IMG/VR virus record: IMGVR_UViG_637000104_000001
Source: a virus
Taxonomy: Duplodnaviria > Heunggongvirae > Uroviricota > Caudoviricetes
Direction: 5' to 3' (one strand)
Length of the DNA: 41,687 nucleotides
The notes beneath the pieces were generated by a model. That model searched no databases. It saw only the letters and a list, made by a program, of their open reading frames with translations, and was not told where the DNA came from. A program made the translations under genes and the position numbers. Shown here piece after piece: positions 1 to 41,687 of this stretch. The number at the start of each line of letters is the position of its first letter. The first letter of the stretch is position 1.

Positions 1-3091
<3,091 letters not shown>

Positions 3092-3102
<11 letters not shown>

Positions 3103-3328: not shown

Positions 3329-3467
3329 TTGTCCTCCTCTTAGCTGCTGAGGGAGTTTGTGACCGATATATCTGACATGATATTAAGCTCATGGCAGGTA
3401 CATCTCTTGACTGGTCATAGAGATAAATTTAATGCTGAGAAATGCAGTATTGAATTTATCAATTTTT

Positions 3468-3707: not shown

Positions 3708-3754
3708 TTTTACACCTCAGTTGGACGATGTTGAAATTTGCTGCTTTGAGGCCA

Positions 3755-3973: not shown

Positions 3974-4071
3974 CTTTCATTAATCCCTGAATTGTTGGTT
4001 AATACGCTTGAGGGTGAATGCGAATAATAAAAAAGGAGCCTGTAGCTCCATGATGATTTTGTTTTTCATGT

Positions 4072-4353: not shown

Positions 4354-4363
4354 TCAGTGGTTG

Positions 4364-4555
4364 TCATACCTGGTCTCTCTCATCTGCTTCTGCTTTCGCC
4401 ACCATCATTTCCAGCTTTTGTGAAAGGGATGTGGCTAACGTATGAAATTCTTCGTCTGTTTCTACTGGTATTGGCACAAACCTGACTCCAATTTGAGCGA
4501 GGCTATGTGCCATCTCGATACTCGTTCTTAACTCAACGGGAGATGCTTTGTGCAT
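4364..4555 (-). CDS. Hypothetical protein, lambda orf63-like
   Basis: 63 aa, same size and position relative to exo as lambda orf63. Confidence 0.5.
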   Translation of the reverse strand: MHKASPVELRTSIEMAHSLAQIGVRFVPIPVETDEEFHTLATSLSQKLEMMVAKAEADERDQV

Positions 4556-4716
4556 ACAGCCCCTCGTTTATTATTTATCTCCTCAGCCAGCCGCTGGGCT
4601 TTCAGTGGATTTTGGATAACAGAAAGGCCGGGAAATACCCAGCCTCGCTTTGTAACGGAGTAGACGAAAGTGATCGCGCCTACCCGGATATTATCGTGAG
4701 GATGCTTCATCGCCAT
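4528..4716 (-). CDS. Hypothetical protein, lambda orf60a-like
   Basis: 62-aa ORF overlapping the exo stop and the orf63-like start, the same overlapping arrangement as lambda orf60a. Confidence 0.4.
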
Positions 4717-5387
4717 TGCTCCCCAAATACAAAACCAATTTCAGCCAGTGCCACGTCCATTTTTTCGATGAACTCCGGCACCATCTCGTCAAAATTCGCC
4801 ATGTACTTTTCATTCCGCTCAATCACGACATAATGCAGGCCTTCACGCTTCATACGCGGGTCATAGTTGGCAAAGTACCAGGCATCTTTTCGCGTCACCC
4901 ACATGCTGTACTGCACCTGGGCCATGTAAGCCGATTTTATGGCCTCGAAACCACCGAGCCGGAACTTCATGAAATCCCGGGAGGTAAACGGGCATTTCAG
5001 TTCAAGGCCGTTGCCGTCACTGCATAAACCATCGGGAGAGCAGGCGGTGCGCATACTTTCGTCGCGATAGATGATCGGGGATTCAGTAACATTCACGCCG
5101 GAAGTGAATTCAAACAGGGTTCTGGCGTCGTTCTCGTACTGTTTTCCCCAGGCCAGCGCCTTAGCATTAACTTCCGGAGCCACACCGGTGCAAACCTCAG
5201 CCAGCAGGGTGTGGAAGTAGGACATTTTCATGTCAGGCCACTTCTTTCCTGAGCGGGGCTTTGCTATCACGTTGTGAACTTCTGAAGCGGTGATGACGCC
5301 GAGCCGTAATTTGTGCCATGCATCATCCCCCTGTTCGACAGCTCTCACGTCGATCCCGGTACGCTGCAGGATAATGTCCGGTGTCAT
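4707..5387 (-). CDS. exo: Lambda exonuclease (Red alpha)
   Basis: 226-aa translation is near-identical to remembered lambda Exo ([40 protein letters not shown]...). Confidence 0.97.
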
Positions 5388-6169
5388 GCTGCCACCTTCT
5401 GCTCAGTGGCTTTCTGTTTCAGGAATCCAAGAGCTTTCACTGCTTCGGCCTGTGTCAGTTCTGACGATGCGCGAATGTCGCGGCGAAATATCTGGGAACA
5501 GAGCGGCAATAAGTCGTCATCCCATGTTTTATCCAGGGCGATCAGCAGAGTGTTAATCTCCTGCATGGTTTCATCGTTAACCGGAGTGATGTCGCGTTCT
5601 GGCTGACGTTCTGCAGTGTATGCAGTATTTTCGACAATGCGCTCGGCTTCATCCTTGTCATAGATACCAGCAAATCCGAAGGCCAGACGGGCACACTGAA
5701 TCATGGCTTTATGCCGTAACATCCGTTTGGGATGCGACTGCCACGGCCCCGTGATTTCTCTGCCTTCGCGAGTTTTGAATGGTTCGCGGCGGCATTCATC
5801 CATCCATTCGGTAACGCAGATCGGATGATTACGGTCCTTGCGGTAAATCCGGCATGTACAGGATTCATTGTCCTGCTCAAAGTCCATGCCATCAAACTGC
5901 TGGTTTTCATTGATGATGCGGGACCAGCCATCAACGCCCACCACCGGAACGATGCCGTTCTGCTTATCAGGGAAGGCGTAAATTTCTTTCGTCCACGGAT
6001 TAAGGCCGTACTGGTTGGCGACGATCAACAATGCGATGAACTGCGCATCGCTGGCATCACCTTTAAATGCTGTCTGGCGAAGAGTGGTGATCAGTTCCTG
6101 TGGGTCGACAGAATCCATGCCGACACGTTCAGCCAGCTTCCCTGCCAGCGTTGCGTGTGCTGTACTCAT
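5384..6169 (-). CDS. bet: Red beta single-strand annealing protein
   Basis: 261 aa, near-identical to remembered lambda Bet ([43 protein letters not shown]...). Confidence 0.97.
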
Positions 6170-6174
6170 CCGTT

Positions 6175-6471
6175 TTATACCTCTGAATCAATATCAACCT
6201 GATGGTGAGCAATGGTTTCAACCATGTACCGGATGTGTTCTGCCATGCGCTCCTGAAACTCAACATCGTCATCAAACGCACGGGTAATGGCTTTTTTGCT
6301 GGCCCCGTGGCGTTGCAAATGATCGATGCATAGCGATTCAAACAGGTGCTGGGGCAGGCCTTTTTCCATGTCGTCTGCCAGTTCTGCCTCTTTCTCTTCA
6401 CGGGCGATCTGCTGGTAGTGACGCACCCAGCTCTGAGCCTCAAGACGATCCTGAATGTAATAAGCGTTCAT
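6175..6471 (-). CDS. gam: Gam, RecBCD inhibitor (98-aa form)
   Basis: [54 protein letters not shown] matches lambda GamS. Confidence 0.95.
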
Positions 6472-6545
6472 GGCTGAACTCCTGAAATAGCTGTGAAAAT
6501 ATCGCCCGCGAAATGCCAGGCTGATTAGGAAAACAGGAAAGGGGG

Positions 6546-6752
6546 TTAGTGATTCAGGCCGTTGCCGCGTCCGTCGAGAAAAACTTCCACGAGCAAGTCA
6601 CGGGTATAAGTGCGCTCGATGCCGCGATGCAGATAAAGCCGTCCGCGTAAATTAGCTGATGCAGTCCAGGTACCATCTTTGTGTTTGACCAGCATTCCTG
6701 GCATGACCGCACCGCGATTAACGGTCTGTGTTCCGTAATGTTGATGAACCAT
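6546..6752 (-). CDS. Small protein in the kil position (68 aa from the Met with a strong AGGAG RBS)
   Basis: Part of the 136-aa ORF 6546..6956; the internal ATG at 6750-6752 is preceded by AGGAG with a 6-nt spacer. It is the first gene upstream of gam in transcript order, where lambda has kil. Identity with Kil is not verified. Confidence 0.4.
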
Positions 6753-7029
6753 AAAAACTCCTGCCCGTAAGCTGGGCTGCTGAACATATAGAGACTTCTG
6801 CGCGTATTCAGGCGGTGGATGGCCGCCGGTTGTCATAACTAAACCGCCTCGTTGAAGCGACTGAGGTATGAAATGTTGAGTTAATTTCAGCTGGTCACAC
6901 CGACGTTCACGCGTCCGTTTCACCCCTCGCACTCCCCGAAGCCTGCTGAAATTCAAACTGCGGATCTAAGCGGTCATCGCAACGGTGAATCAGGTGGTTG
7001 CCGTATCGTTGTGTTGTTGCGATATGGTG

Positions 7030-7074
7030 ATAATAGCTATTGCTATTGGTGATATCAATACTTATTGCTATTGG
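7030..7074 (-). promoter_or_regulatory. Putative oL/pL: leftward sigma70 promoter (TTGATA-17-TATTAT) overlapping repeated operator motif
   Basis: Minus-strand reading gives TTGATA (7058-7053), a 17-nt spacer, then TATTAT (7035-7030). Motif ATTGCTATTGG occurs at 7039-7049 and 7064-7074, and related copies occur in the cI-cro intergenic region. Confidence 0.5.
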
Positions 7075-7195
7075 TTGATGTGTTTTGATATTAAATGTTT
7101 GATAGCAAAAAGAATTAATTTTGTGACTTGCATCGCATAGCGATAACTGAAGGGAGGATGTGGTGGTTTTTCGAACGGTTTGTGTGATGAGGGGA

Positions 7196-7223
7196 CAAAA
7201 GAAAACCCGGCACGGTGGCCGGG
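7196..7223 (-). terminator. Intrinsic terminator after the cI-operon cargo genes (tImm-like)
   Basis: Hairpin CCCGGC-ACGGTG-GCCGGG (7206-7223), followed on the minus strand by TTTTCTTTTG; lies just 3' of the ASCH ORF stop. Confidence 0.65.
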
Positions 7224-7227
7224 ATTC

Positions 7228-7605
7228 TTACGCAGGTAGGTAAAGATATGATTGTGGTGGCTTAATATTACTACCTAGAGCAGAGATAGGAATTGGTTCT
7301 TTATATCTTTCCACTTCACCAATTTTTATTGCGTAGGCCTTTTCTCTACCTGAATAATATGAGTCATAAAATTGCTTAGAAATACCTGCGTGTTTTTCCG
7401 TCTTTTTCCAAAGAGATTCCGGTTCGTCACTTAGTATTGATTCAATACGGAATTGACCAACAACTTTACCTAATGGCATCGTGGCATAAATAACAACGGT
7501 GCTAATTTGCGGATTTTTGAATATACCTTTACGAAACTCGAACCGCTTTGTTCCGTTCAATATTTTTTCTGCAAACTCAGGCTTAATGGATAATAAAACT
7601 TTCAT
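7228..7605 (-). CDS. ASCH-domain protein (PUA-like fold), 125 aa
   Basis: N-terminal MKVLLSIKPEFAEKILNGTKRFEFRKG resembles the ASCH signature (..SIK..wAe.I..G.K..E.R); overlaps the upstream ORF by 23 nt. Confidence 0.6.
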   Translation of the reverse strand: MKVLLSIKPEFAEKILNGTKRFEFRKGIFKNPQISTVVIYATMPLGKVVGQFRIESILSDEPESLWKKTEKHAGISKQFYDSYYSGREKAYAIKIGEVERYKEPIPISALGSNIKPPQSYLYLPA

Positions 7606-8656
7606 TTATCTTGCCTAACTCGATGATCTTTAAGAACTGCTCATTTGTGAGTTTAAAGTGACTCCATCGGAATGCACGCGAACCATTTAGCCCCACATGA
7701 TCTATTAAAATAGCACGATTGGGTCTCTTTGGCAAAGACAGATTGTATGTGAATCTTATAATGAAAGGGTATCGACGTTCTTTATAGATTTTTCTGAGTT
7801 CATCTTCAGAAAATACGCTAAAACGAATACAATAGTCTACAAAACTATCTTCGCTTAAAAATTCAGAAATATTTTTTACGCTCTCAACTACACATAATGT
7901 ACTGGCTACAGAACGATAGCGAGCTGGCCCTTTTTTGTCTCCGGTTCTATAGATGACAATGATATCTCCTCTTTTCATTCCCATCACAGAACGCATTCCA
8001 CATATGTAAATTTTATGAATGCTGTTAGCATGGGATATATCTTTGACAATATCTGGTGATTCATTTACAAGTTTTGAATCAGGGAATAGTCTAGTGTGAT
8101 ATTCGGGATAAATCGCCAGTAAATATTTGTTGGCCCTTGATGTCATTATTCGAGGGTAATCTAATAAAATATCACCATAAGGCTCATGCAAAGACCTCGC
8201 ATATACAAACTCTTTCCCGTTATGTGTTTCTTTTTCACCATGAATGTAAAATCCGTACGTTTGGAAAAGTTTTATTAGATGGACGTGTTTGTCGAAAACA
8301 GTAACATAAATATCATCAGATTTTGATGAAAATGCATGGTCAAACGCTTTTTTTAGAAATCGTTGTCCGCGAAGGGTGCCTTTAGATTCAAATTTGAATG
8401 TTCCTATCTTTAGATGACGTCCTGGTGGGAGCGCTGGATTAATGTCATTTGCATCATCATTTTCTTTTAGATACATAAAACCTTCGATTTTATGCTTGTC
8501 ATCATAGAGCACATAAGCTGATTCTCCTTCTCTGGCTTTTTTTTCTAACCAAAGAGGAAACTCTTTATAATCTTTTTTTAAAGAGTCAAAAAATGGGTCA
8601 TTGTGATCAAAATCAGAGAATTTCTCATATTTTAAAGTATCCATTAAGTTCTCCAT
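7583..8656 (-). CDS. GNAT-like acetyltransferase-fold protein with unassigned C-terminal domain, 357 aa (alternative start at Met5)
   Basis: N-terminal half has GNAT-like elements (LKIGTFKFESKGTLRGQRFLKKAF; LIKLFQTYGFYIHGE resembling the a..LY.k.GF motif). Sits directly downstream of the repressor gene on the same strand. Fold assignment is from motif reading only. Confidence 0.45.
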   Translation of the reverse strand: MENLMDTLKYEKFSDFDHNDPFFDSLKKDYKEFPLWLEKKAREGESAYVLYDDKHKIEGFMYLKENDDANDINPALPPGRHLKIGTFKFESKGTLRGQRFLKKAFDHAFSSKSDDIYVTVFDKHVHLIKLFQTYGFYIHGEKETHNGKEFVYARSLHEPYGDILLDYPRIMTSRANKYLLAIYPEYHTRLFPDSKLVNESPDIVKDISHANSIHKIYICGMRSVMGMKRGDIIVIYRTGDKKGPARYRSVASTLCVVESVKNISEFLSEDSFVDYCIRFSVFSEDELRKIYKERRYPFIIRFTYNLSLPKRPNRAILIDHVGLNGSRAFRWSHFKLTNEQFLKIIELGKINESFIIH

Positions 8657-8724
8657 TCTAAAATGAATAATTAAGTTGTTTTACTGAATGAGCACAATGC
8701 CCGGTTGATAATTTTTAATTGGTA

Positions 8725-9453
8725 CTATCCATGCTTCCTATACGTCTGCGGCATGCTCCCAATAACTTTCCCGAAGATAAATACCCGGTTCATCTCATCT
8801 TTCTCGATCGGGTCCCACGGTGAGTAGCTTTTGTTATCAGAGATAACCAGCAGCTTATCCTTCATCATTTGCAGGCGCTTTACATGGGCTGTGTCGTCGT
8901 ACAGAAACGCATAGATACCATCACCGTCGAAAGATTTAACCGTGATATCAACGAATAGAAGATCACCAGGTTCAATCGTTCCTGACATGCTGTCACCGCG
9001 TACGTTAATGATGCGGATATTTTCTGCCTTCCTACCATCGAACATGTGACGAGCATCGTCAAACGAGTACTCAACCGAGCGTAGAACTTCTACAAACTCA
9101 CGGTTGATGACTCCCGGCCCGGCACTCACTTCTATATCAAGAACGTCAATTTTAAAGTATTTGGAATAGCTGACAGCAGGCTTCCCTGATTGTTGACCGT
9201 CATTTCTCATCGGGCCTATGCCTGATGAGAGCCATTCTGTTCGAACACCCAATGCATTAGCTATTTCAACAATTTTTGTTGAGCCGCGCGCGTTGCCGCT
9301 TGTCAGTCTCCAGATTGTGGGTTGAGCTACGCCAGACGCCTTTGCAAGAGCGCCTTGAGACATTCCAGATTGTTCCATCGCTAGGTTTAAGCGATCAGCA
9401 AGAGTTTCTTTTTTCATAAGTTTTAATTTATACGCTTGCGTATTGATGGTCAA
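8725..9453 (-). CDS. CI-like prophage repressor (HTH N-terminus + S24 LexA-like autopeptidase C-terminus)
   Basis: HTH region QGALAKASGVAQPTIWRL; S24 catalytic Ser in VRGDSMSG and Lys in HVKRL. Divergent from the cro-like gene. The true start may be the internal Met (MKKETLADRLN). Confidence 0.85.
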   Translation of the reverse strand: MTINTQAYKLKLMKKETLADRLNLAMEQSGMSQGALAKASGVAQPTIWRLTSGNARGSTKIVEIANALGVRTEWLSSGIGPMRNDGQQSGKPAVSYSKYFKIDVLDIEVSAGPGVINREFVEVLRSVEYSFDDARHMFDGRKAENIRIINVRGDSMSGTIEPGDLLFVDITVKSFDGDGIYAFLYDDTAHVKRLQMMKDKLLVISDNKSYSPWDPIEKDEMNRVFIFGKVIGSMPQTYRKHG

Positions 9454-9461
9454 AAAACGTT

Positions 9462-9519
9462 TTGCTATTGCTTGGATTAATACGCATTGCTATTATTTAT
9501 TCATTGCAATACCAATAGG
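9462..9519 (+). promoter_or_regulatory. Putative oR/pR operator-promoter region
   Basis: Operator-like motifs TTGCTATTG (9462-9470), ATTGCTATT (9486-9494) and CATTGCAATACCAATAGG (9502-9519). Candidate pR is TTGCTT (9468-9473), 17-nt spacer, TATTAT (9491-9496); AGGA RBS precedes the cro-like ATG. Confidence 0.5.
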
Positions 9520-9527
9520 AATTGATA

Positions 9528-9755
9528 ATGACAAATCAAACCATTCAACTCGCAATCAGTATTACAGGTAGTCAAAAACGACTGGCAGATCTATGCGGTG
9601 TAGCCCAACCCACAGTTTGGCGTTGGCTACACGGTGGCGGAATTGATGCCCGCTATGTAATGAAAATTGTCTCAGCCACTGGTGGAAAGATTAAACCAGC
9701 AGATATTCGTCCCGACCTCGCACCATTGTTTAACGCGAGTAATTCTGCCGCCTAA
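9528..9755 (+). CDS. Cro-like HTH regulator (YdaS-like)
   Basis: Small HTH protein (LADLCGVAQPTVWRWLHG), first gene of the rightward operon, divergent from the repressor. Confidence 0.7.
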   Translation: MTNQTIQLAISITGSQKRLADLCGVAQPTVWRWLHGGGIDARYVMKIVSATGGKIKPADIRPDLAPLFNASNSAA

Positions 9756-9779
9756 ACTGCGGCGTTAACTGATAAGGCA

Positions 9780-10325
9780 ATGACTATGCAACCACTTACA
9801 TACCAACAGACTAGCGGATTTAGCCCGACTGCGGTGATAAATCGTTCTCAAACAAAACAGGCGCCAGGCCACGAAAAAATCCGTGATGCCGTTCGCGCCT
9901 GGTCGGCTGCAGATAATCAGGATGTTGTTGCCGCACTCATTGTGAATGAGTATCGGGAGCAGGGCGGCGGCACCATCGATTTCCCTGATGATGTCAGCCG
10001 TGCACGCCAGAAGCTGTTCCGCTTTCTCGATAACAAATTCGATTCTGAAAAATACCGAAATAACGTGCGTGAACTGACCCCGGCAATTCTGGCGGTACTA
10101 CCGCTGGAATATCGCGGCCACCTGGTTGAGCAGGATAGCTACATGGCTCGGCTGGCTGAAATGGAAAAGGAACTCAGTGAGGCAAAACAGGCTGTCATTC
10201 TCAACGCACCACGCCACCAGAAACTGAAGGAGATGAGTGAAGGCATTGTGTCGATGTTTCGTGTGGACCCGGATCTGGCTGGTCCATTGATGGCGATGGT
10301 CACCACCATGCTGGGGGCAATATGA
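9780..10325 (+). CDS. CII-like regulatory protein (YdaT/CII-analogue position), 181 aa
   Basis: Position between the cro-like gene and O; the assignment is positional only. Confidence 0.4.
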   Translation: MTMQPLTYQQTSGFSPTAVINRSQTKQAPGHEKIRDAVRAWSAADNQDVVAALIVNEYREQGGGTIDFPDDVSRARQKLFRFLDNKFDSEKYRNNVRELTPAILAVLPLEYRGHLVEQDSYMARLAEMEKELSEAKQAVILNAPRHQKLKEMSEGIVSMFRVDPDLAGPLMAMVTTMLGAI

Positions 10326-11341
10326 CAGGTTCAGAAATGGCGAAAGCCGGTCTGCGCGAACAGAACCGACTTTCAGGTGCAAATCGTAACACACTCATTG
10401 CGGGAGGAATTATGGCAAACACTGCTGAGATATTCAATTTTCCAGTGCCGGATGTGGCACAAAAGGAGCCGCGCGTGGCAGATCTCGATGATGGTTATAC
10501 GCGCATTGCAAATGAGTTGCTGGAAGCTGTGATGCTGGCCGGATTAACACAGCACCAGCTTCTGGTCTTCCTGGCTGTCATGCGCAAAACATATGGCTTT
10601 AATAAAAAACTGGATTGGGTGAGCAACGAGCAACTTTCCGAGTTGACCGGGATATTGCCGCACAAGTGTTCTGCTGCAAAAAGTGTTCTGGTAAAGCGTG
10701 GGATTTTTATTCAGAGCGGGCGGAATATCGGCATTAATAATGTGGTCAGTGAATGGTCAACATTACCCGAATCAGGTAAGAAAAATAAAGTTTACCTGAA
10801 AGAGGTAAATTTACCTGAATCAGGTAAGAAAAGTTTACCCAAATCAGGTAAAGACGTTTACCCGAATCAGGTAAACACAAAAGACAAACTAACAAAAGAC
10901 AATATAAAACCTTTTTCGTCCGAGAATTCTGGCGAATCCTCTGACCAGCCAGAAAACGATCTTCCTGTGGTGAAACCGGATGCTGCAATTCAGAGCGGCA
11001 GCAAGTGGGGGACAGCAGAAGACCTGACCGCCGCAGAGTGGATGTTTGACATGGTGAAGACCATCGCGCCATCAGCCAGAAAACCGAATTTTGCAGGGTG
11101 GGCCAACGACATCCGCCTGATGCGTGAGCGTGACGGGCGTAACCATCGCGACATGTGCGTTCTGTTCCGCTGGGCCTGCCAGGACAACTTCTGGTCCGGT
11201 AACGTGCTGAGTCCAGCAAAACTCCGCGACAAGTGGACTCAGCTCGAAATTAACCGCAACAAGCAACAGGCTGGTGTGACTGCCAGCAAACCAAAACTCG
11301 ACCTGACAAACACTGACTGGATTTACGGGGTGGAGCTATGA
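10322..11341 (+). CDS. O: Replication initiator O (alternative start at 10412 with GGGAGG RBS)
   Basis: ADLDDGYTR..LLEA....LT..Q..V.LA..RKTYG.NK matches the lambda O N-terminal domain; contains the iteron origin internally; ATGA overlap with the upstream stop. Confidence 0.85.
   Translation: MTGSEMAKAGLREQNRLSGANRNTLIAGGIMANTAEIFNFPVPDVAQKEPRVADLDDGYTRIANELLEAVMLAGLTQHQLLVFLAVMRKTYGFNKKLDWVSNEQLSELTGILPHKCSAAKSVLVKRGIFIQSGRNIGINNVVSEWSTLPESGKKNKVYLKEVNLPESGKKSLPKSGKDVYPNQVNTKDKLTKDNIKPFSSENSGESSDQPENDLPVVKPDAAIQSGSKWGTAEDLTAAEWMFDMVKTIAPSARKPNFAGWANDIRLMRERDGRNHRDMCVLFRWACQDNFWSGNVLSPAKLRDKWTQLEINRNKQQAGVTASKPKLDLTNTDWIYGVEL
10763..10915 (+). repeat. Replication origin: 4-5 iterons (approx. 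TTACCCGAATCAGGTAA, each internally palindromic) followed by an AT-rich stretch
   Basis: Direct repeats at about 10763-10780, 10791-10809, 10811-10828, 10834-10853 and 10857-10876, then AT-rich 10877-10915; located inside O as in ori-lambda. Confidence 0.75.
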
Positions 11342-12051
11342 AAAATATTGCCGCGCAGATGATTAACTTTGACCGTGAGCAGATGCGTCGAATCGCCAAC
11401 AACATGCCGGAACAATACGACGAAAAGCCGCAGGTGCAGCAGGTGGCGCAGATCATCAACGGTGTGTTCAGCCAGCTGCTTGCGACATTTCCGGCAAGCC
11501 TCGCGAACCGCGACCAGAACGAGCTGAACGAAATCCGCCGTCAGTGGGTTATGGCTTTCCGTGAAAATGGAATTACCACTATGGAGCAGGTTAACGCCGG
11601 AATGCGCGTGGCCCGCCGACAGGAGCGACCATTCCTGCCGTCGCCCGGCCAGTTCGTAGCGTGGTGTAAGCAGAGTGGCGGGGCGTTAGGTATCACTGTT
11701 GACCAAGTCATAACCGAATACTGGGATTGGCGTAATCGTTCCTTCGAATTCACTTCCAGCGAGCATTTCCCGTGGTCACAGCCTGTCATGTACCACATCT
11801 GCGTCGAACTGCGCCACCGCAGCACAGAGCGCCAGTTAACGCATGGTGAGCTGGCGCGTGAAGCCGGCGATCTGCTGGACATGTGGGAGAGGCGCGTCAC
11901 CGAGGGCAAACCAGTACCGCCTGTGCGCCGGGCGATTGCAGCACCGGCTGCCGAGCATGGCCCGACGCCAATCCAGCTGCTTCAGGCGAAGTACAACCGC
12001 AACAAGTCGAACGGGATGGTGCGAAGTGGTAAAGAAGATAATAAAGAATAA
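11338..12051 (+). CDS. P: Replication protein P (helicase loader); lambda-like N-terminal half, divergent C-terminal half
   Basis: First ~110 aa near-identical to lambda P (MKNIAAQM.NFDREQMRRIANNMPEQYDEKPQVQQVAQIINGVFSQLLATF...); the sequence diverges after ..FVAWC. Confidence 0.85.
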   Translation: MKNIAAQMINFDREQMRRIANNMPEQYDEKPQVQQVAQIINGVFSQLLATFPASLANRDQNELNEIRRQWVMAFRENGITTMEQVNAGMRVARRQERPFLPSPGQFVAWCKQSGGALGITVDQVITEYWDWRNRSFEFTSSEHFPWSQPVMYHICVELRHRSTERQLTHGELAREAGDLLDMWERRVTEGKPVPPVRRAIAAPAAEHGPTPIQLLQAKYNRNKSNGMVRSGKEDNKE

Positions 12052-12129
12052 TATTTAGGGTTATAGGTCTTAGCCCATTTTAAATGGAAGGCAGACATGC
12101 AGCCATGCATACTTCGCATGGCAACATAA

Positions 12130-12558
12130 TTATTTAGACAAACTATCTAATTTCTGCGTCGCTTTTTGTGTTAGGTCGCTGTAACTGATAAACCCTACGT
12201 TAGCACCTACAATTAACACTAAGAACACTAAGCTGCATATGGATAGAGTGGCAGATTTATGCTTATGGAAAACAAAATATGCTACTATTGCACTTAATAT
12301 GAAGGAAATGAATAGAAATATAGATGTTGATGTTTTTAGATATTTTTCAGGAAATAATGGGTGAGCAATAATGTATACAAGATTAAGTAGTATATAAATT
12401 GCTACCGGAATGAAAATCATGCTCCAGTGTGTATCTTTTTTGGGAGGGATTGGCTGCAAATAATCAGACACCGTTTTTCCATCAGTTTCAAGAAGAATTA
12501 CTAGATCTCTTACTTCACCACTGACTTGAGTGCCATCCTTAGTAGTAATGTTAATCAT
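12130..12558 (-). CDS. Small integral membrane protein (about 142 aa, three predicted TM helices)
   Basis: Hydrophobic segments IFIPVAIYILLNLVYIIA, IFLFISFILSAIVAYFVF and LSICSLVFLVLIVGANVGFI. Start chosen at the ATG forming an ATGA overlap with the upstream stop (12555-12558). Antisense to the replication operon. Confidence 0.5.
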   Translation of the reverse strand: MINITTKDGTQVSGEVRDLVILLETDGKTVSDYLQPIPPKKDTHWSMIFIPVAIYILLNLVYIIAHPLFPEKYLKTSTSIFLFISFILSAIVAYFVFHKHKSATLSICSLVFLVLIVGANVGFISYSDLTQKATQKLDSLSK

Positions 12559-12932
12559 TTTTTCCCTCCAAATACGATTCCCTCTACGTCTTTGGAAGCT
12601 TTTTGTGATGACCACTCCTCTGAATCAGGTGATTTAATTAAAAATATTGTATCTCCATCAAAAATCGTATTTGTTCCGTAAAAATTTACATTTGATAGAT
12701 CACCACCAAAAACCCTCTGCCCACTCGAGGTAATTGCCTCACCTAATTTAGTAAAATTACCTGCAATAGATGATTTTCTTTTTCCACTTCTATTCAAAGT
12801 GGCTTTAATTACACCACCACCATCCTTAGAGTTAAATAATTGAATGTCCACTCCAGCAGTTGGTTGTATATATTTTGAAAGCTCTTTCTTGAACTTGTTA
12901 ATATATTTATCTTTGTTTTCTTTGTTGGTCAT
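12555..12932 (-). CDS. Hypothetical soluble protein, 125 aa, Gly-rich
   Basis: ORF translationally coupled to the downstream membrane protein gene; no recognised motif. Confidence 0.45.
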   Translation of the reverse strand: MTNKENKDKYINKFKKELSKYIQPTAGVDIQLFNSKDGGGVIKATLNRSGKRKSSIAGNFTKLGEAITSSGQRVFGGDLSNVNFYGTNTIFDGDTIFLIKSPDSEEWSSQKASKDVEGIVFGGKK

Positions 12933-13199
12933 TGGTTAGATCCATAGTTCTGGCTGTGATTAGGTGAAAGTATACAAGGTTTTTAAAGCGAAGATCACTG
13001 TTTTGGCTTCAAGATAGTTTTGATTTATCGTAATCAATCCGCCATAATCCTCTCATCGGAGCCTGAACAACTCCGGTGACTTCTGCGCATTTAAGGGGAC
13101 TTAAATGCGACCACAATCTGAACTCATCACCTTGTCACAGATGCAGAAATGCACCTGCGATGTCTTGCATCCAGCGTTTGATCTCTGCGGAGGTGAAGC

Positions 13200-13655
13200 G
13201 TGAACCTCCCACAAGATGGCATCAAATTACATCGCGGTAACTTCACCGCTGTCGGTCAGCAGATCCAGACTTATCTGGAAGACGGCAAATGCTTTCGCAT
13301 GGTGCTTAAACCGTGGCGCGAGAGACGCAGTCTTTCCCAGAATGCACTCAGCCACATGTGGTACAGCGAAATCAGTGAATACCTCATCAGCAGGGGTAAA
13401 ACGTTCGCCACTCCAGCTTGGGTAAAAGATGCTCTCAAACACACATATCTCGGTTATGAAACCAAAGACCTGGTTGATGTCGTAACCGGTGATATCACCA
13501 CTATCCAGTCGTTACGCCATACCTCCGATCTTGATACCGGAGAGATGTATGTCTTCCTGTGTAAGGTTGAAGCCTGGGCGGTGAATATTGGCTGCCACCT
13601 GACTATTCCGCAGAGCTGCGAGTTCCAGCTGCTCCGCGACAAGCAGGAGGCGTAA
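13200..13655 (+). CDS. ninB: NinB-family recombination protein
   Basis: [17 protein letters not shown] resembles the NinB motif RSLDQNRKLWA; position after P. Confidence 0.6.
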
Positions 13656-13825
13656 TGGCTACACCGCTTATTCGTGTCATGAACGGACACATCTACAGAG
13701 TATCAAATCGTCGTAAGCGTAAGCCTGAGCTGAAGCCATCCGAAATACCAACACTGCTCGGATATACCGCCAGCCTGGTTGATAAAAAATGGTTGCGACT
13801 GGCAGCAAGGAGGAGTCATGGCTGA
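13655..13825 (+). CDS. ninE: NinE-like small protein (56 aa; below the ORF-track size cut-off)
   Basis: [59 protein letters not shown] read directly from the sequence; TAATG overlap with the ninB stop and overlap with the next start. Confidence 0.5.
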   Translation: MATPLIRVMNGHIYRVSNRRKRKPELKPSEIPTLLGYTASLVDKKWLRLAARRSHG

Positions 13826-14108
13826 TTTGAGAAAAGCAGCGCGTGGTCGGGAATGCCAGGTAAGAATCCCTGGCGTATGTAATGGCAACCCTGAAACGTC
13901 TGTACTGGCACATATCCGGCTGACTGGATTGTGCGGCACCGGTACCAAACCGCCAGACCTGATTGCCACCATTGCATGTTCTGCCTGCCACGACGAAATC
14001 GACCGCCGCACACATTTTGTCGATGCTGCATATGCAAAAGAATGCGCGCTGGAAGGTATGGCGAGAACACAGGTTATGTGGCTGAAAGAGGGGGTTATTA
14101 AGGCGTGA
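13818..14108 (+). CDS. YbcO-like (DUF1364) putative nuclease, 96 aa
   Basis: Start at ATG 13818 preceded by AGGAGG; Cys/His-rich small protein located before rusA as in DLP12. Confidence 0.55.
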
Positions 14109-14467
14109 ATACCTACAGCATCACATTACCCTGGCCTCCGAGCAATAATCGCTATTACCGCCATAATCGCGGGCGCACGCACGTCAGCGCAGAGGGGCAG
14201 GCATACCGCGATAACGTCGCCCGAATCATTAAAAACGCAATGCTGGATATCGGCCTGGCTATGCCTGTGAAAATCCGCATTGAGTGCCACATGCCGGATC
14301 GCCGTCGCCGTGACCTGGATAATCTGCAAAAAGCCGCTTTTGACGCACTCACTAAAGCAGGTTTCTGGCTGGATGATGCTCAGGTCGTTGATTACCGCGT
14401 TGTGAAGATGCCTGTTACCAAAGGTGGGAGGCTGGAACTGACCATCACCGAAATGGGGAATGAATGA
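14105..14467 (+). CDS. rusA: Holliday junction resolvase RusA
   Basis: 120 aa; [36 protein letters not shown] matches remembered E. coli RusA. Confidence 0.92.
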
Positions 14468-14604
14468 TGTTTGAGTTTAATATGGCAGAACTTCTTCGCC
14501 ACCGCTGGGGGCGTCTGCGCTTATATCGTTTCCCCGGTTCTGTTTTGACCGATTACCGAATACTGAAGAATTACGCCAAAACCCTGACAGGAACAGGAGT
14601 ATGA
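14464..14604 (+). CDS. ylcG: Small protein YlcG-like (46 aa; below the ORF-track size cut-off)
   Basis: [49 protein letters not shown] read from the sequence; ATGA overlap with the rusA stop; DLP12-like position between rusA and Q. Confidence 0.5.
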
Positions 14605-14689
14605 AGTCAGAGATAACAATCAACTAATACTGTTTTGTTGATTTTTGCTTGTAATTGGCGTTCTGGTCTGATTTTTGTGGAGTAAGTTG

Positions 14690-15073
14690 ATGCGTGATAT
14701 TCAGATGGTTCTTGAGCGTTGGGGTGCGTGGGCGGCTAATAATCATGAAGATGTGACCTGGTCGTCCATTGCCGCCGGTTTTAAGGGATTAATTCCTTCA
14801 AAAGTAAAATCTCGCCCGCAATGTTGTGACGATGACGCGATGATCATTTGCGGGTGCATGGCCCGTCTGAAAAAGAACAACAGCGATTTACACGATTTAT
14901 TAGTAGATTATTATGTATGTGGTATGACATTCATGTCACTGGCAAGTAAGCATTGCTGCTCGGATGGTTATATCGGGAAAAGGTTACAGAAGGCTGAGGG
15001 CATAATTGAAGGGATGTTAATGGCATTAGATATCCGGTTAGATATGGATATCGTTGCTAATAATTCTAATTGA
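14690..15073 (+). CDS. quuD: Late-gene antiterminator Q (phage 82 / DLP12 QuuD type)
   Basis: [31 protein letters not shown]... with a Cys-rich zinc-binding region; start taken at ATG 14690 rather than the TTG at 14675. Confidence 0.88.
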
Positions 15074-15096
15074 TATGCAATTGTTTACTAAAAGTT

Positions 15097-15124
15097 ATTA
15101 AAAATGGGGCGTGGAAACGCCCCC
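15097..15124 (-). terminator. Intrinsic terminator (minus-strand orientation) downstream of the porin gene
   Basis: Hairpin GGGGCG-TGGAAA-CGCCCC (15107-15124), followed on the minus strand by ATTTTTAATAA. Confidence 0.55.
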
Positions 15125-15210
15125 AAAATAAAGGGTAATATATAACAGAAGGTTTATATAGTAAGAAGCAAGGTAGTGCTTCTAAAGGAAGTGGCTTGAG
15201 GGCTCCACTT

Positions 15211-15250
15211 ATATGTTGCGGAGGCAAAGCCTCCCGCAACATATCTTTTT
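15211..15250 (+). terminator. Strong hairpin, candidate bidirectional terminator between Q and the porin gene
   Basis: Perfect 15-bp stem ATATGTTGCGGAGGC / GCCTCCCGCAACATAT with a 3-nt loop, followed by CTTTTT on the plus strand; lies 11 nt past the porin stop on the minus strand. Confidence 0.6.
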
Positions 15251-15261
15251 CGTAAGTCAGA

Positions 15262-16344
15262 TTAGAACTGATAAACCAGACCTACAGCGACGATGTCGTC
15301 GGTATCAATACCAGCTGTTTTGGTAAACTTACTATCGTCAATTAAGTTGATTTTGTAATCAACAAAAGTGGACATGTTTTTATTAAAGTAGTAAGTAGCA
15401 CCGACATCGACATACTTGACTAAGTCTCGGTCACCATGAACACCAAGGTCTTTACCTTTTGACTGAAGGTAAGCAACAGATGGACGCAGACCGAAGTCAA
15501 ACTGATATTGTGCTACTGCTTCAAAGTTTTGTGCTTTGTTTGCAATATGGTTATTACCAAAAACGGTCATATTCTGAGTTTCAGAATATGTGGTAGCCAG
15601 ATAGATATTGTTCGCATCATATTTCAGGCCTGCAGCCCATACTTCCGCATTTTTGCCGGAGGCATTGAATTTGCTCTTACCATAGGCGACCTGACCGTCA
15701 GTGCGATCTGATTTAGCATAGGTTGCACCCACGCCGAATCCTTCATACTCATAAGTAGTGGAGAAACCGAAACCATCACCATTGGCTTCAGTTACGTCAG
15801 TGCGGTCATTTTTACCCTGATACTGAGCAGCAAAGTTCAGGCCATCGACCAGACCAAAGAAGTCGTTGTTACGATAAGTTGCAACACCAGTAGTGCGACC
15901 AGTCATGAACACATCTGTTTGGGTCCAGGTATCACCACCGAATTCTGGCAGAACGTCAGTCCACGCACCGATGTCGTATGCTACACCGTAGTTACGGCCG
16001 TAATCGATTGAGCCGTAATCACCAAATTTCAGGCCTGCAAATGCAAGACGGGTTTTGTCTTTGGAAGAACCTTGAGATTCAGCACGGTTGCCTTTGAATT
16101 CATATTCCCACTGACCGAAACCAGTCAGTTGATCGTTGATTTGGGTTTCACCTTTGAAGCCAAGACGGGCATAAGTAGTATCACCATCATCTGCATCATT
16201 AGAGGAGAAGTAGTGCTTGGCATTAACTTTCCCGTATAGATCCAGCTTGTTACTGTCTTTATTATAAATTTCAGCTGCCTGAGCAGACATCGCCATCAGT
16301 ACTGATGCAGCTACAGCAGAAATTGCCACTGTTAATTTTTTCAT
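15262..16344 (-). CDS. nmpC: OmpC-family general porin (NmpC/OmpD-like), 360 aa
   Basis: Signal peptide [30 protein letters not shown] start of the mature protein, C-terminal VGLVYQF beta-barrel signature. Start taken at internal ATG 16344 (the ORF-track start 16404 is upstream of the signal peptide). Confidence 0.9.
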
Positions 16345-16770
16345 TGTACGCCCTTTTTTTGAACTATTATTAAAAAATGATGTCACTGCGCGATAAATAT
16401 TCATCTAATCAATGTGATTATTTCAAGATGTAAGTTTTAGTTTCTCATTTAATTTGTGAAGTAGATCTCTATTTTTATCGGAACCTTTTCTATCTAATCC
16501 TATTCATGGCTCTTGTCTGAACAAAAATAAATCTATTAGCTAATTTATATTAATGGCACTTATTTATAAGTGCTCTATAATTCTTTAGCTTAATTTAAAC
16601 AAACTAAAAATAACATCGGAAATTATTAACTGGTTATTTGTTGAAGTTTTCTTATGCATTTGTGGTGGTGTTTTGAACACTCGGTGGCATTCTCACAAAT
16701 ATCATTTAGTAGTTTACGTACGTAAAAAATTGGTTATGCTGTTAAGAGTGGTTACTTCGTCACACAGCTT

Positions 16771-19598: not shown

Positions 19599-19850
19599 TT
19601 ATCGGTTTTGGCTACGCAGCATAGTACAAAACGGGCAGGTGCATCCCGGGACGGGGGAGGCGTCACATGTCCCTGTGATGGTTGTTCCGGGTAATGTACT
19701 GTGTGGGGCATAAAAATGTCCGATAATTTTACTTTCTACCGCAGTTAGTTGATTCGTTGGTCCTGGTAGCACATTGGGCGAGGATTTAAATGCCAGGCAA
19801 CTGAAGGATGATGTCGCAAGGGAGATAGCGAGAATATTTCTGATTTTCAT
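19599..19850 (-). CDS. Small secreted Cys-containing protein (83-aa precursor with signal peptide)
   Basis: MKIRNILAISLATSSFSCLA signal peptide; C-terminal TGTCDASPVPGCTCPFC cysteine cluster. Start at internal ATG 19850. Confidence 0.4.
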   Translation of the reverse strand: MKIRNILAISLATSSFSCLAFKSSPNVLPGPTNQLTAVESKIIGHFYAPHSTLPGTTITGTCDASPVPGCTCPFCTMLRSQNR

Positions 19851-39005: not shown

Positions 39006-39030
39006 GGGCGCCAGAAATGGCGCCTTTTTT
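39006..39030 (+). terminator. Intrinsic terminator after J
   Basis: GGCGCC-AGAAAT-GGCGCC hairpin followed by TTTTTT. Confidence 0.7.
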
Positions 39031-39045
39031 ATTTGTGGAGTGAAT

Positions 39046-41106
39046 ATGGCAGTACAGATTTCAGGCGTGCTGAAAGACGGTGCAGGAAAACCGATACAGA
39101 ACTGCACCATTCAGCTCAAAGCAAAACGTAACAGCACCACGGTTGTGGTGAACACGGTGGCCTCAGAAAATCCGGATGAAGCCGGACGTTACAGCATGGA
39201 TGTCGAGTATGGCCAGTACAGCGTTATCCTGCTGGTTGAAGGTTTTCCGCCTTCACATGCCGGGGCTATCACCGTGTATGAGGATTCTAAGCCGGGGACA
39301 TTGAATGATTTTCTGGGCGCTGCAACAGAAGATGATGTTCGTCCGGAGGCACTGTATCGTTTTGAAAAGATGGTGGAAGAGGTGGCACGCAACGCTGAAG
39401 CCGCCTCTCAGAGCGCAGCGGCAGCAAAGAAATCAGAAACAGCAGCGGCATCGTCCAGGAATGCGGCGAAAACATCAGAGACGAATGCAGGTAACAGCGC
39501 GAAAGCGGCAGCTTCTTCAAAAACAGCCGCACAAAACGCAGCAACAGCGGCAGAACGTTCAGAGACAAATGCCCGTGCGTCAGAAGAAGCCTCCGCAGAC
39601 AGTGAAGAGGCTTCCCGCCGTAATGCAGAGTCAGCCGCTGAAAATGCCGGAGTCGCCACCACAAAAGCGCGGGAGGCCGCAGCAGACGCAACAAAGGCCG
39701 GGCAGAAAAAGGATGAGGCTCTGTCGGCAGCGACACGGGCTGAAAAGGCGGCAGACCGCGCAGAAGTCGCAGCGGAAGTGACTGCAGAGCCCTATGCGAA
39801 TATAGTGCCGCCGCTGCCTGATGTGTGGATACCGTTTAACGATTCACTGGATATGATTGCGGGTTTTTCTCCGGGCTATAAAAAAATAGCTATTGGTGAC
39901 GATGTGGTTCAGGTCGCCAGTGATAAACAGGTTAATTTCAGTCGCGCATCAACGGCAACATATATCAACAAATCTGGCGAACTGAAAACGGCGGAAATTA
40001 ATGAGCCGCGATTTGAGTGTGATGGCCTGCTTATTGAGGGACAAAGAACGAACTACATGCTCAATTCGGAAAGTCCAGCCAGCTGGGGGAAGTCATCAAA
40101 CATGGATGTGCCCGAAACCGGGACGGATAGTTTTGGTTTTACTTATGGAAAGTTTGTCTGCAACGATTCTCTGGTTGGGCAAACTTCGGCTATTAATATG
40201 GCATCAATTGCTGCAACAAAGTCAGTTGATGTCTCAGGCGATAACAAGTACGTGACAACCTCATGCCGTTTTAAAACAGAACGACAGGTAAGGTTACGTA
40301 TACGGTTTGATAAGTATGATGGTAGTGCAACAACTTTTCTTGGCGATGCGTACATTGATACGCAAACGCTTGAAATTAATATGACAGGTGGTGCTGCCGG
40401 CAGAATTACGGCACGAGTCAGGAAGGATAAGACCACAGGCTGGATTTTTGCAGAGGCAACGATTCAGGCAATTGATGGTGAGTTAAAAATAGGCTCTCAG
40501 ATACAGTATTCTCCTGAGCAGGGTGGGGCAACAGTATCTGGTGACTATATTTATCTTGCCACCCCACAAGTAGAGAATGGGCCGTGTGTATCATCATTTA
40601 TTATTTCAGGAGGCAGCGCAACGACAAGAGCCAGTGATTTGGTTAGTATCCCCACCAGAAATAATCTTTATAAGTTACCATTTACTTTTTTACTTGAGAT
40701 TCATAAAAACTGGGATATTGCACCAAACGCCGCACCCCGCGTGTGGGATATAGCAGCAGCCAATACCGGGCAATCAGCAATTGCAGCAATCAACAGAGGT
40801 AGTGGTAAGTTATATATGAGTCTGTCAAACCCTTCAGGCTCGTATGTTAATAGCGCAGCGACAGATGTATTTGCAGAGAAAACCACATTTGGATGTATTG
40901 CAAAAGCTGATGGTCACTTTCATGTGGTGACAAATGGTAAAGCGGTTAATGAAGTTTATTGTGAATATAATGGCGTGACCGCTGATAAAAATATCCGATT
41001 TGGAGGGCAGACGAATACTGGAGAACGACATCTGTTTGGCCATATTCGCAATTTCCGCATATGGCATAAAGAATTAAATGACAGGCAATTAAAAGAGGTC
41101 GTATGA
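39046..41106 (+). CDS. stf: Side tail fibre protein (lambda Stf-like N-terminus, Ala-rich repeat shaft, unfamiliar C-terminal globular domain)
   Basis: N-terminus MAV.ISGVLKDG.GKP.QNCTIQLKA.RNSTTVVVNTV.SENPDEAGRYSMDVEYGQYSVIL matches lambda Stf; GGAG RBS; start at ATG 39046. Confidence 0.85.
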   Translation: MAVQISGVLKDGAGKPIQNCTIQLKAKRNSTTVVVNTVASENPDEAGRYSMDVEYGQYSVILLVEGFPPSHAGAITVYEDSKPGTLNDFLGAATEDDVRPEALYRFEKMVEEVARNAEAASQSAAAAKKSETAAASSRNAAKTSETNAGNSAKAAASSKTAAQNAATAAERSETNARASEEASADSEEASRRNAESAAENAGVATTKAREAAADATKAGQKKDEALSAATRAEKAADRAEVAAEVTAEPYANIVPPLPDVWIPFNDSLDMIAGFSPGYKKIAIGDDVVQVASDKQVNFSRASTATYINKSGELKTAEINEPRFECDGLLIEGQRTNYMLNSESPASWGKSSNMDVPETGTDSFGFTYGKFVCNDSLVGQTSAINMASIAATKSVDVSGDNKYVTTSCRFKTERQVRLRIRFDKYDGSATTFLGDAYIDTQTLEINMTGGAAGRITARVRKDKTTGWIFAEATIQAIDGELKIGSQIQYSPEQGGATVSGDYIYLATPQVENGPCVSSFIISGGSATTRASDLVSIPTRNNLYKLPFTFLLEIHKNWDIAPNAAPRVWDIAAANTGQSAIAAINRGSGKLYMSLSNPSGSYVNSAATDVFAEKTTFGCIAKADGHFHVVTNGKAVNEVYCEYNGVTADKNIRFGGQTNTGERHLFGHIRNFRIWHKELNDRQLKEVV

Positions 41107-41381
41107 AAGATTTAACTTTGAAGTTTTATGACAAACTGCAGTTTAAGGCCTTCCTGTCATCTCTTGGCTGGGCGGAAGATGAAGACCTCCAGAATAAACT
41201 GTTAGTTGATGAAATTGGTTTCACCTACACAGAAACAGGGGTAACAGAAGAGGGAGAACCTGTCTGTATCCGGAATGATGGTTATTTTGTCAACATTCGC
41301 ATTCTTGATGACTTGTTTGATGTTTCTGTATTCTCTGATTATGTCGTGGAGCTGGAAACACCGCTTCGGGAATGGAGCTGA
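41103..41381 (+). CDS. Hypothetical acidic protein, 92 aa, translationally coupled to stf
   Basis: ATGA overlap with the stf stop; no similarity to canonical Tfa recognised. Confidence 0.4.
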   Translation: MKDLTLKFYDKLQFKAFLSSLGWAEDEDLQNKLLVDEIGFTYTETGVTEEGEPVCIRNDGYFVNIRILDDLFDVSVFSDYVVELETPLREWS

Positions 41382-41393
41382 AAGGAGGAAATA

Positions 41394-41687
41394 ATGGATA
41401 TAAGCCCCTTACTTCATGCACTTTGTGCTGTGGCTGCGCAGATACTGGTTGGTCTTTTTACCGGAAACTGGGCTTACGGAGCGATAGCCGGTTGTACGTT
41501 CTTCATTGCGCGTGAACATACCCAGGCAGAATATCGCTGGATTGAAATGTTCGGGCATGGCAAGCGAATGAATATGCCGTGGTGGGGCGGTTTTGATCCG
41601 CGTGCTTGGGATGTGGCAAGCCTGATGGATTTTGCTGTGCCGGTGGTGGCGTGTCTGCTGGTCTGGCTGTTGGTTAATCGTGGGTGA
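41394..41687 (+). CDS. Small membrane protein, 97 aa (two predicted TM helices)
   Basis: Hydrophobic segments LLHALCAVAAQILVGLFTG and FAVPVVACLLVWLLV; RBS AGGAGG upstream; stop at the window end. Confidence 0.4.
   Translation: MDISPLLHALCAVAAQILVGLFTGNWAYGAIAGCTFFIAREHTQAEYRWIEMFGHGKRMNMPWWGGFDPRAWDVASLMDFAVPVVACLLVWLLVNRG

Follow-up and report, generated by a model that had tools for sequence, protein, structure and literature searches.

In temperate coliphages the first contact with the host is governed by the side tail fibres, and we have analysed the end of IMG/VR virus record IMGVR_UViG_637000104_000001, a caudoviral stretch of 41,687 nucleotides (the window), in which a side tail fibre gene, stf, is followed by two small open reading frames (ORFs), orf92 and orf97. 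A close described arrangement is the Stf-Tfa pair of phage lambda, which shares with this locus the family of the N-terminal anchor, a similar Ala-rich shaft, the position after J and a small coupled downstream gene. Unlike in lambda, however, the C-terminal approximately 434 amino acids of the fibre have no relation to the tip of lambda Stf, the downstream gene encodes an alpha/beta protein of 92 amino acids that has no match to Caudo_TAP, the family of Tfa, and does not co-vary with the receptor-binding part, and lom is absent. Receptor-linked small genes are furthermore known beside receptor-binding genes, namely llp of T5, cor of phi80, N15 and HK022, and gtr and oac after P22-type tailspikes, and orf97 is reminiscent of these in that it encodes a small envelope protein right behind a receptor-binding gene and is often the last gene before the prophage end. 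No sequence relationship of any of them to orf97 was found, however, and whereas these systems are receptor-specific and separately expressed, orf97 is translationally coupled to late genes and conserved across hosts and receptor-binding specificities.

The described relative of the fibre tip is Rcc01080 (GhsB) of the gene transfer agent (GTA) RcGTA, which mediates adsorption to capsular polysaccharide, mutants adsorbing poorly (PMC7296036, PMC10218006, PMC5026251). It is present as a single flexible subunit per head spike, seated on a capsid-vertex base by way of an N-terminal Ile/Leu-Gly repeat, and residues 2-10 alone are resolved (PMC7296036), so that there is no experimental fold with which to compare the corresponding domain of the window fibre, termed D1 below. 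The published account of rcc01079-rcc01080 places these genes directly ahead of capsule genes and mentions no partner (PMC5026251). D1 is homologous to Rcc01080, the shared motifs running from ..TRATSATY.. to ..YLWGAQLE.G..SS.I.T....TRA.D, but unlike Rcc01080 it here ends a presumably trimeric tail fibre shaft, with an additional LamG-like domain behind it. Since D1 is carried on a lambda Stf anchor and a heptad shaft, it belongs to a tail fibre tip and not to a head spike.

We consider it reasonably probable that the region is a side tail fibre cassette of the phage 21 type, made up of a lambda-type stalk, a mobile sugar-binding tip, a dedicated partner of that tip (orf92) and an independent gene, orf97. 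The 2,648-nucleotide segment is 99.0-99.4% identical at the DNA level to its counterparts in phage 21 (OL657228.1), ev017, mEp460, PhiR63_2 and Perceval, which carry the three genes in the same order and show no substantive difference from the window cassette; phage 21 itself is 99.4% identical. The sequence is known from a classical phage, and its tip domain already bears a name. The phage 21 genes are annotated as 'side tail fiber' (CPT_21_22), 'hypothetical protein' (CPT_21_23) and 'putative membrane protein' (CPT_21_24), the last being followed by converging sitDCBA cargo on the opposite strand, and the inspected parts of the phage 21 genome contain no annotated tail fibre assembly gene. 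PGAP likewise names the fibre 'phage head spike fiber domain-containing protein' and both small genes 'hypothetical'. The segment comprising tip module, orf92 and orf97 is at least 80% covered in 452 of 5,426 complete E. coli genomes (about 8%), and parts of it are found in 1,908 of them (about 35%). Literature searches on phage 21 Stf, Laminin_G_3 tail fibres and STF chimeras turned up no functional work on the tip or on either small gene, the phage 21 papers being concerned with J and LamB, OmpC or OmpF. The features of the locus are given below, residue numbers of the shaft, D1 and D2 following the 688-residue numbering of Stf (GTG 39040 start).

39006-39035, plus strand: GC-rich terminator-like hairpin with T-run in the J-stf spacer, annotated as a terminator in phage 21
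39046-41106, plus strand: stf, side tail fibre of 686 amino acids (ATG 39046; ribosome-binding site GGAG at 39038-39041; PHROG 1419, tail protein)
39046-39438, plus strand: lambda-Stf-type N-terminal anchor (phage_tail_N; PF08400, residues 3-133)
39355-39789, plus strand: Ala/Glu/Ser-rich heptad shaft, residues 106-250, from composition and autocorrelation
39802-39933, plus strand: D0, conserved adaptor (IVPPLPDVWIPFNDSLDMI...) forming the fusion junction, with a drop in GC; homology to differently anchored fibres begins exactly here
39934-40674, plus strand: D1, domain of the GTA head-spike-fibre type, residues ~299-545 (NF048003 and Rcc01080 matches)
40675-41103, plus strand: D2, probable ConA/laminin-G-like domain, residues ~546-688, with C-terminal motif LFGHIRNFRIWHKELNDRQL (sub-threshold Laminin_G_3 match)
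41103-41381, plus strand: orf92, acidic alpha/beta protein of 92 amino acids, ATGA-coupled to stf (PHROG 1361/18574)
41394-41687, plus strand: orf97, small polytopic inner-membrane protein, last gene of the late operon, AGGAGG upstream (PHROG 1443)

The stf ORF could begin at GTG 39040 or at ATG 39046, and the true start is the latter, the resulting 686 residues being the length found in most database homologues. J ends at 38987, and the hairpin is the sole content of the 58-nucleotide spacer between J and stf, where it occupies the position of lom in lambda; no lom lies between the two genes. The orf92 ATG (41103-41105) overlaps the stf TGA (41104-41106) in the context gtATGAaa and is preceded by AAGAGG, whereas orf92 and orf97 are separated by 12 nucleotides, and the stop codon of orf97 ends on the final base of the window (41687). 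GC content is ~0.55 in J and the 5' part of stf (0.552 upstream of the module), 0.435 in the module, 0.416 in orf92 and 0.527 in orf97. Both small ORFs are real genes, having conserved, length-preserving homologues and, in the case of orf92, also a confident fold prediction.

The N-terminal anchor is recognised by PF08400 (residues 3-133, E 9.8e-69, 230 bits against a cutoff of 26.6), and residues 3-96 match the PDB tail fibre chain 9e7m_Ta (E 1.4e-49), which bears the table label 'Tail fiber protein' and which we take to be lambda Stf; by analogy the anchor is presumably trimeric and attaches the fibre to the tail tip. The shaft is composed of 34% Ala, 14% Glu and 11% Ser, shows an autocorrelation of 0.33 at lags 7 and 14 and weakly resembles coiled-coil regions of T7 gp17 and of depolymerases, all of which points to a probable alpha-helical coiled coil; no DNA tandem repeats were found in it. 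The phage 21 annotators place a CII-binding-site consensus (ttgynnnnnnttgy) within the shaft region, on the minus strand at 19719-19732 of phage 21 (~39531-39544 of the window), and this may be a chance match in repetitive sequence. Phages 1W (L164, OM475428.1 20936-23352), 3W, 4A7, Lambda_4C10 and D2 carry three consecutive 'mobile element protein' genes near stf residue 643, which, as read from the gene sizes alone, suggest an IS66-type insertion sequence (IS) element, and these isolated phages are therefore without a complete side fibre, as is lambda PaPa. Apart from this insertion the 1W stf is 98% identical, and orf92 and orf97 are intact downstream of it in all five relatives.

The original prediction, made from the window sequence, had described a lambda-Stf-like N-terminal anchor, an Ala/Ser/Glu-rich shaft, a 92-residue acidic ORF coupled by ATGA and a 97-residue membrane ORF, and the PF08400 and 9e7m_Ta matches, the composition and heptad periodicity, and the conserved homologues of both ORFs confirm this description. 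It had also found neither a canonical tail fibre assembly gene nor lom, in agreement with the short J-stf spacer and with Pfam, which gives no Phage_fiber or Caudo_TAP match in Stf, orf92 or orf97. The C-terminal domain, which the prediction did not recognise, is not an unknown one, however, since the phage 21 DNA, the NF048003 domain and a PGAP name already exist. What the module matches is not a well-characterised Stf or Tfa family, but a named domain that has been little studied functionally. The suggestion that it may be a lectin-like receptor-binding module remains plausible in view of the NF048003 score above cutoff, the homology to Rcc01080 and a Laminin_G_3 score that lies below threshold in the window but above it in a homologue.

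The module begins at residue ~253-255 (IVPPLPDVWIPFNDSLDMI), beyond which the homology of Stf to other fibres is confined to the spike-fibre module, and it ends in ..GHIRNFRIWHKELNDRQLKEVV. D1 scores 55.7 bits against the NCBIfam model NF048003 GTA_spike_fiber (cutoff 36, residues 331-531) and matches the Rcc01080 sequence (6tb9_F3) over residues 299-545 in phmmer (E 1.4e-9), and by analogy it is a probable polysaccharide-binding beta-sandwich. D2 is probably ConA/LamG-like, as judged from a Laminin_G_3 match that falls short of the gathering score of 27.6 in the window fibre and passes it in an Aeromonas homologue (31.8 bits), and a C-terminal motif ..G(H/W)(I/L)RN(L/F/V)R(I/Y)(W/I)...L...(Q/E)L is common to homologues from Escherichia to Cupriavidus. 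Among E. coli relatives D1 and D2 are hypervariable and recombine independently, identity falling to 40% in D1 and to 23% in the core of D2, whereas D0 is 66-100% conserved and the D1-D2 junction and the last ~30 residues are conserved as well. Variable D1 and D2 domains on a conserved framework are what is typically seen where receptor-binding parts follow surface structures that vary. The Peptidase_S74 C-terminal chaperone domain (PF13884) is absent from Stf according to Pfam. The tip seems to be a receptor-binding module and plausibly a lectin-like one, by analogy with its relatives.

On comparison of the fetched loci, the low-GC tip of ~434 amino acids is, as far as its distribution can tell, a horizontally mobile module that has been fused to at least five different tail anchors at one and the same junction, the combinations being as follows.

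L007-L010: module on the lambdoid PF08400 anchor
L011: module on a P2-like fibre (P2 H-type N-terminus, PF12571)
L206: module on a Phage_fiber_2 N-terminus (PF03406), in a myovirus or phage-plasmid
L003-L006: module on an unrelated anchor, in a non-lambdoid siphophage
L208: module on a fibre adjoining an SU10-type adaptor gene
L186, second copy: anchorless module beginning at D0

The E. coli prophages L003-L006 have the module fibre and orf92 (about 3887-7369) between head genes (portal and a protease-capsid fusion) and the tail tube gene, followed by a gene for a 342-residue Peptidase_S74 protein, an unusual position for a fibre, which brings to mind how RcGTA employs the domain in a 'head spike'. 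In L186 (796-5285) the order is anchored fibre, orf92, anchorless module protein of 444 residues, second orf92 and orf97, a tandem layout that suggests branched or dual receptor-binding assemblies.

The product of orf92 has a pI of 4.09 and matches phrog_1361 (E 1e-41), its distant relatives matching both PHROG 1361 and 18574, neither of which has an assigned function. Close homologues form 47 clusters in a word-indexed search, all from Escherichia or Shigella, all of about 92 residues and down to 52% identical, and an exhaustive profile search of 1.84 billion representatives added about 60 more distant relatives of 85-110 residues; large TPR and PKD proteins returned by the latter search were judged spurious, being repeat proteins according to Pfam. 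The family signature is M(K/R)D..L(K/R)F ... D.IG ... G(Y/W)(H/F/Y)VN(L/I/V)R ... P.R(V/E)W(A/S). The AlphaFold2 model of orf92 reaches a mean per-residue confidence (pLDDT) of 90.3, lower in the conserved C-terminal tail P.R.W, and no known structural relative of the predicted fold was found; searches of Pfam (E <= 0.1), NCBIfam, PADLOC and PDB sequences likewise gave no match. The protein is not a Caudo_TAP protein, as it is without a PF02413 match and has 92 residues as compared with about 175-200.

The link between orf92 and the module is the evidence that carries our reading. With our own hidden Markov model (HMM) applied to all fetched loci, the distant ones having been located by a degenerate DNA pattern scan, a module ORF was found directly upstream, usually overlapping, in 68 of 76 orf92-like genes; six of the remaining eight have an upstream ORF above the NF048003 cutoff and two are cut off at the locus edge, so that among loci that could be evaluated no orf92 lacks an upstream module. 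One candidate from the pattern scan, the Methylorubrum locus L070, was set aside as probably due to chance or too distant. The pair occurs in Escherichia, Leclercia, Atlantibacter, Silvania, Aeromonas, Cupriavidus, Burkholderiaceae, Nitrosomonadales and Pseudoroseomonas. The P2-like prophage L011 furthermore carries module, orf92 and orf97 at the site of gene G, in front of a Caudo_TAP remnant of 74 residues, which indicates that the cassette has displaced the H tip and most of G. In L206 two tandem fibres each have their own small gene, the module being followed by orf92 and a Gp34_trimer fibre by an intact Caudo_TAP gene, and L186 has two modules of 42% identity, behind each of which stands a copy of orf92, the copies being 44% identical. 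Synteny and the low GC that the module (0.435) and orf92 (0.416) have in common as against the 0.55 of the backbone lead us to conclude that orf92 belongs to the module and not to the phage backbone, and we infer that it is most likely a dedicated folding, assembly or accessory factor of D0-D1-D2. As a hypothesis that is new here, orf92 would represent a partner family for spike-fibre/LamG tips that stands in place of Tfa.

The second small gene presents a different picture. The hydrophobic stretches of orf97 (~4-39 and 73-96) flank a polar, Trp-rich loop, in agreement with the two transmembrane domains noted by the phage 21 annotators, and the protein matches phrog_1443 (E 2.4e-58). The family is much larger than that of orf92, with 577 clusters against 47 and 433 IMG/VR loci against 52, and homologues in Salmonella, Enterobacter, Leclercia, Citrobacter, Aeromonas and Comamonas are 57-100% identical. 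A polar/aromatic segment of 35 residues, FIAREHTQAEYRWI..FG.GKR.NMPWWGGFD, is near-invariant, and H8, Q16, C34, D79, P83 and C87 are almost invariant as well; R40, E41, H42, E46 and D68 likewise count among the invariant residues. No match was obtained in Pfam, NCBIfam, PADLOC or a PDB profile search, Lom/Ail and holin families included (PhoR at E 0.037 being noise), and no convincing internal promoter for orf97 was found. That orf97 is part of the module was considered and rejected, since the non-lambdoid siphophage, L206 and L208 have the module but no orf97, and orf97 also stands behind unrelated tailspikes. Of 41 environmental viral contigs, 34 have an ORF of 485-1309 codons that ends within 150 nucleotides upstream of orf97 or overlaps it, the overlap being 4-8 nucleotides in 17 of the 41 loci, and nine of ten sampled upstream ORFs have tailspike or fibre domains, among them pectate-lyase-like beta-helix, Tail_spike_N, Peptidase_S74, P22 Head_binding with a K1-lyase rider, an endosialidase N-terminal extension and Phage_tail_C_2. 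In Leclercia orf97 is found behind an S74 fibre, and in Comamonas behind a J-like protein of 2,520 residues with one ORF of 72 residues between. From these contexts orf97 appears to be a conserved gene behind receptor-binding-protein genes, mostly of polysaccharide-targeting phages, that is co-translated with late genes, and its membership of a widespread family placed in this way is the second hypothesis that is new here.

Aeromonas rivipollensis has a lone orf97 homologue (L014 6001-6309, 57% identity) between pirin and RIO1 kinase genes, with no phage genes in 12 kb, which means that the family may have a cellular role or that this copy may be a domesticated remnant. In 37 of 80 E. coli viral loci (e.g. 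L125 3286-3990) a 234-codon gene for an N-terminal coiled coil and Peptidase_S74 stands between orf92 and orf97; the window has no such gene, nor any remnant of it in the 12-nucleotide spacer.

Both small ORFs had been assigned possible roles in the original prediction, with mixed results. That the fibre might have a non-canonical chaperone is supported insofar as synteny and the gene G site in L011 speak for a dedicated partner, but a specificity-matched partner is not what was found, as there is no co-variation with D1 or D2. The idea of the membrane protein as a receptor-masking factor fares less well, since orf97 is not tied to this type of fibre and its 57-100% conservation across genera argues against it. 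Both genes are intact in close relatives rather than absent or disrupted. The structure predictions that had been called for succeeded in the case of orf92 (pLDDT 90) and failed in that of the tip, and the homology search of the 97-residue protein was carried out, with the 577 clusters and PHROG 1443 as its outcome.

If the cassette is indeed of the kind proposed, its workings may be pictured as follows. By analogy with lambda and its Q antitermination, late transcription would read through the hairpin behind J and give one message for Stf, orf92 and orf97. Stf would trimerise by way of its lambda-type anchor and heptad shaft, as suggested by the match to a solved tail fibre chain, and at residue ~253 the shaft would join the receptor-binding module D0-D1-D2 of ~434 residues. 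The ATGA coupling would cause orf92 to be made in step with Stf, and the tip may either need orf92 or carry it, so that orf92 would do for this tip what Tfa does for classical fibres, probably by contacting the conserved framework (D0, the D1-D2 junction and the C-terminal tail) and not the variable receptor-binding surfaces. Homology with Rcc01080 makes a variable surface polysaccharide, that is O-antigen, capsule or lipopolysaccharide (LPS), the most likely ligand of the tip, and glycan binding may then be a reversible first contact before J engages LamB. The orf97 product would be a separate inner-membrane protein, made from one transcript with glycan-targeting receptor-binding genes and often coupled to them in translation, and it is a speculative thought that it acts on a conserved envelope step, thereby protecting progeny or excluding competitors.

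Several observations nonetheless weigh against this picture. The Laminin_G_3 (PF13385) score of D2 in the window is 24.5-25.7 bits and thus below the Pfam gathering score, and an AlphaFold2 model of the 434-residue module, built from 14 homologues of 64-88% identity, has a mean pLDDT of 41 and is unusable. Stf is dispensable in the laboratory, five isolated relatives carrying an IS in the gene, and phage 21 enters K-12 by way of J and LamB (PMC11336670). Furthermore orf92 does not co-vary with D1 or D2, copies of 98% identity being found beside D1 and D2 domains that are ~40% identical to those of the window, and a chaperone matched to specificity in the manner of the Tfa C-terminus was rejected for this reason; the conservation of orf92 may simply reflect its use as a recombination arm. 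The pairing is moreover not strictly 1:1, since Cupriavidus L079 has two tandem module proteins and a single orf92, and the conservation of orf97 across hosts and types of receptor-binding protein seems to argue against receptor-specific masking.

The absence of co-variation bears directly on what kind of partner orf92 may be. It could be a stoichiometric structural or adaptor subunit kept on the fibre, where it would cap the D0/C-terminal framework or dock a second, anchorless receptor-binding protein in a branched fibre, and its conservation while D1 and D2 vary is what one would expect of a part contacting the framework. Anchorless module proteins that start at D0 indeed adjoin anchored ones in L186 and L079, pointing to branched assemblies, the conserved P.R.W tail with its lower pLDDT could be a docking peptide, and ATGA coupling favours equimolar synthesis. 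We regard such a subunit as rather unlikely all the same, as no virion proteomics were found, 92 residues is small for a structural adaptor, no second anchorless module exists within the window, and a chaperone that is released explains the same data equally well. A somewhat lower probability still attaches to the notion that both small ORFs are unrelated passengers (morons) at a recombination hotspot behind fibre genes, their linkage being positional and not functional. This would account for the GC of orf97 (0.527), which differs from that of the module and orf92, for the occurrence of orf97 behind many unrelated receptor-binding proteins and alone, and for its place as the last gene before prophage cargo or the prophage end, and the conservation of orf92 could reflect a homology arm for cassette exchange. 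It is however difficult to reconcile with an orf92 that is never seen without the module, its start codon overlapping the stop codon ahead of it, and that keeps to one type of module across three proteobacterial classes and five tail architectures, and the overlap of 4-8 nucleotides in 17 of 41 orf97 loci indicates co-translation with late genes, unlike self-promoted lambdoid morons.

It seems improbable that orf97 is a late lysis-associated membrane protein, such as a holin, antiholin or lysis regulator, and not an exclusion factor, although its small size, membrane-spanning segments and co-expression with late genes would fit such a role. The holin gene of T7 directly follows the tail fibre gene, and many environmental contigs have ORFs of ~72-97 and 110-160 codons after orf97, near the contig end, which are putative lysis cassettes. 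Phage 21 however has its own S21/R21/spanin cassette elsewhere, orf97 has neither a holin match in Pfam nor the charged C-terminal tail typical of holins, the extreme conservation of its polar loop is atypical of them, and the free-standing chromosomal copy in Aeromonas is likewise in poor agreement with lysis. Hardly probable at all, in our estimate, is that orf92 is an immunity or inhibitor protein that neutralises a glycanase, lyase or sugar-binding activity of the ConA-like module in the producing cell until assembly. A small, acidic protein tightly coupled to its partner would suit this purpose, but no catalytic motif was identified, the structure model of the module is unreliable, and Rcc01080 is reported to bind capsule and not to degrade it (PMC7296036, PMC10218006).

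As to the window itself, many IMG/VR prophage contigs (e.g. L088 and L090) stop 3 nucleotides past orf97, and the end of the window at orf97 looks like a prophage-boundary call that cuts off the sitABCD cargo and the attachment site present in phage 21. The early, left part (1-16500) is not phage 21-like, but is ~98% identical to phages 4A7, Lambda_4C10 and 1W, with integrase, a serine recombinase (YbcK-like), an OmpD/OmpC-type porin gene and an alpha/beta hydrolase annotated under the match, and the window is consequently a mosaic lambdoid prophage with a porin gene.

Side fibres are the part that is swapped in order to retarget phage-derived delivery particles (PMC11338833). If orf92 is obligatory for spike-fibre/LamG tips, transplants of such tips must bring orf92 along, as they must Tfa for classical tips, and orf92 would then be the missing 'chaperone' for the engineering of these fibres. 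The comparison also links the GTA 'head spike' domain to ordinary tail fibre tips of enterobacterial phages, in a cassette that is found in about 8% of complete E. coli genomes at 80% coverage or more, and on whose tip and two small genes no functional study was found. The further-reaching proposition, which we hold to be a doubtful one, is a double claim: that orf92 founds a new family of tail fibre assembly or accessory proteins for spike-fibre/LamG tips, needed on any tail architecture, and that orf97 is a near-universal inner-membrane factor, co-translated with glycan-targeting receptor-binding proteins in sipho-, myo- and podoviruses, that acts on a conserved envelope step, be it undecaprenyl-linked polysaccharide assembly or DNA entry, for progeny protection or the exclusion of rivals. 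Should the function of orf97 indeed be tied to the receptor-binding protein, it would constitute a new exclusion or conversion function linked to such proteins and point to a widespread, hitherto unrecognised infection step in polysaccharide-targeting phages.

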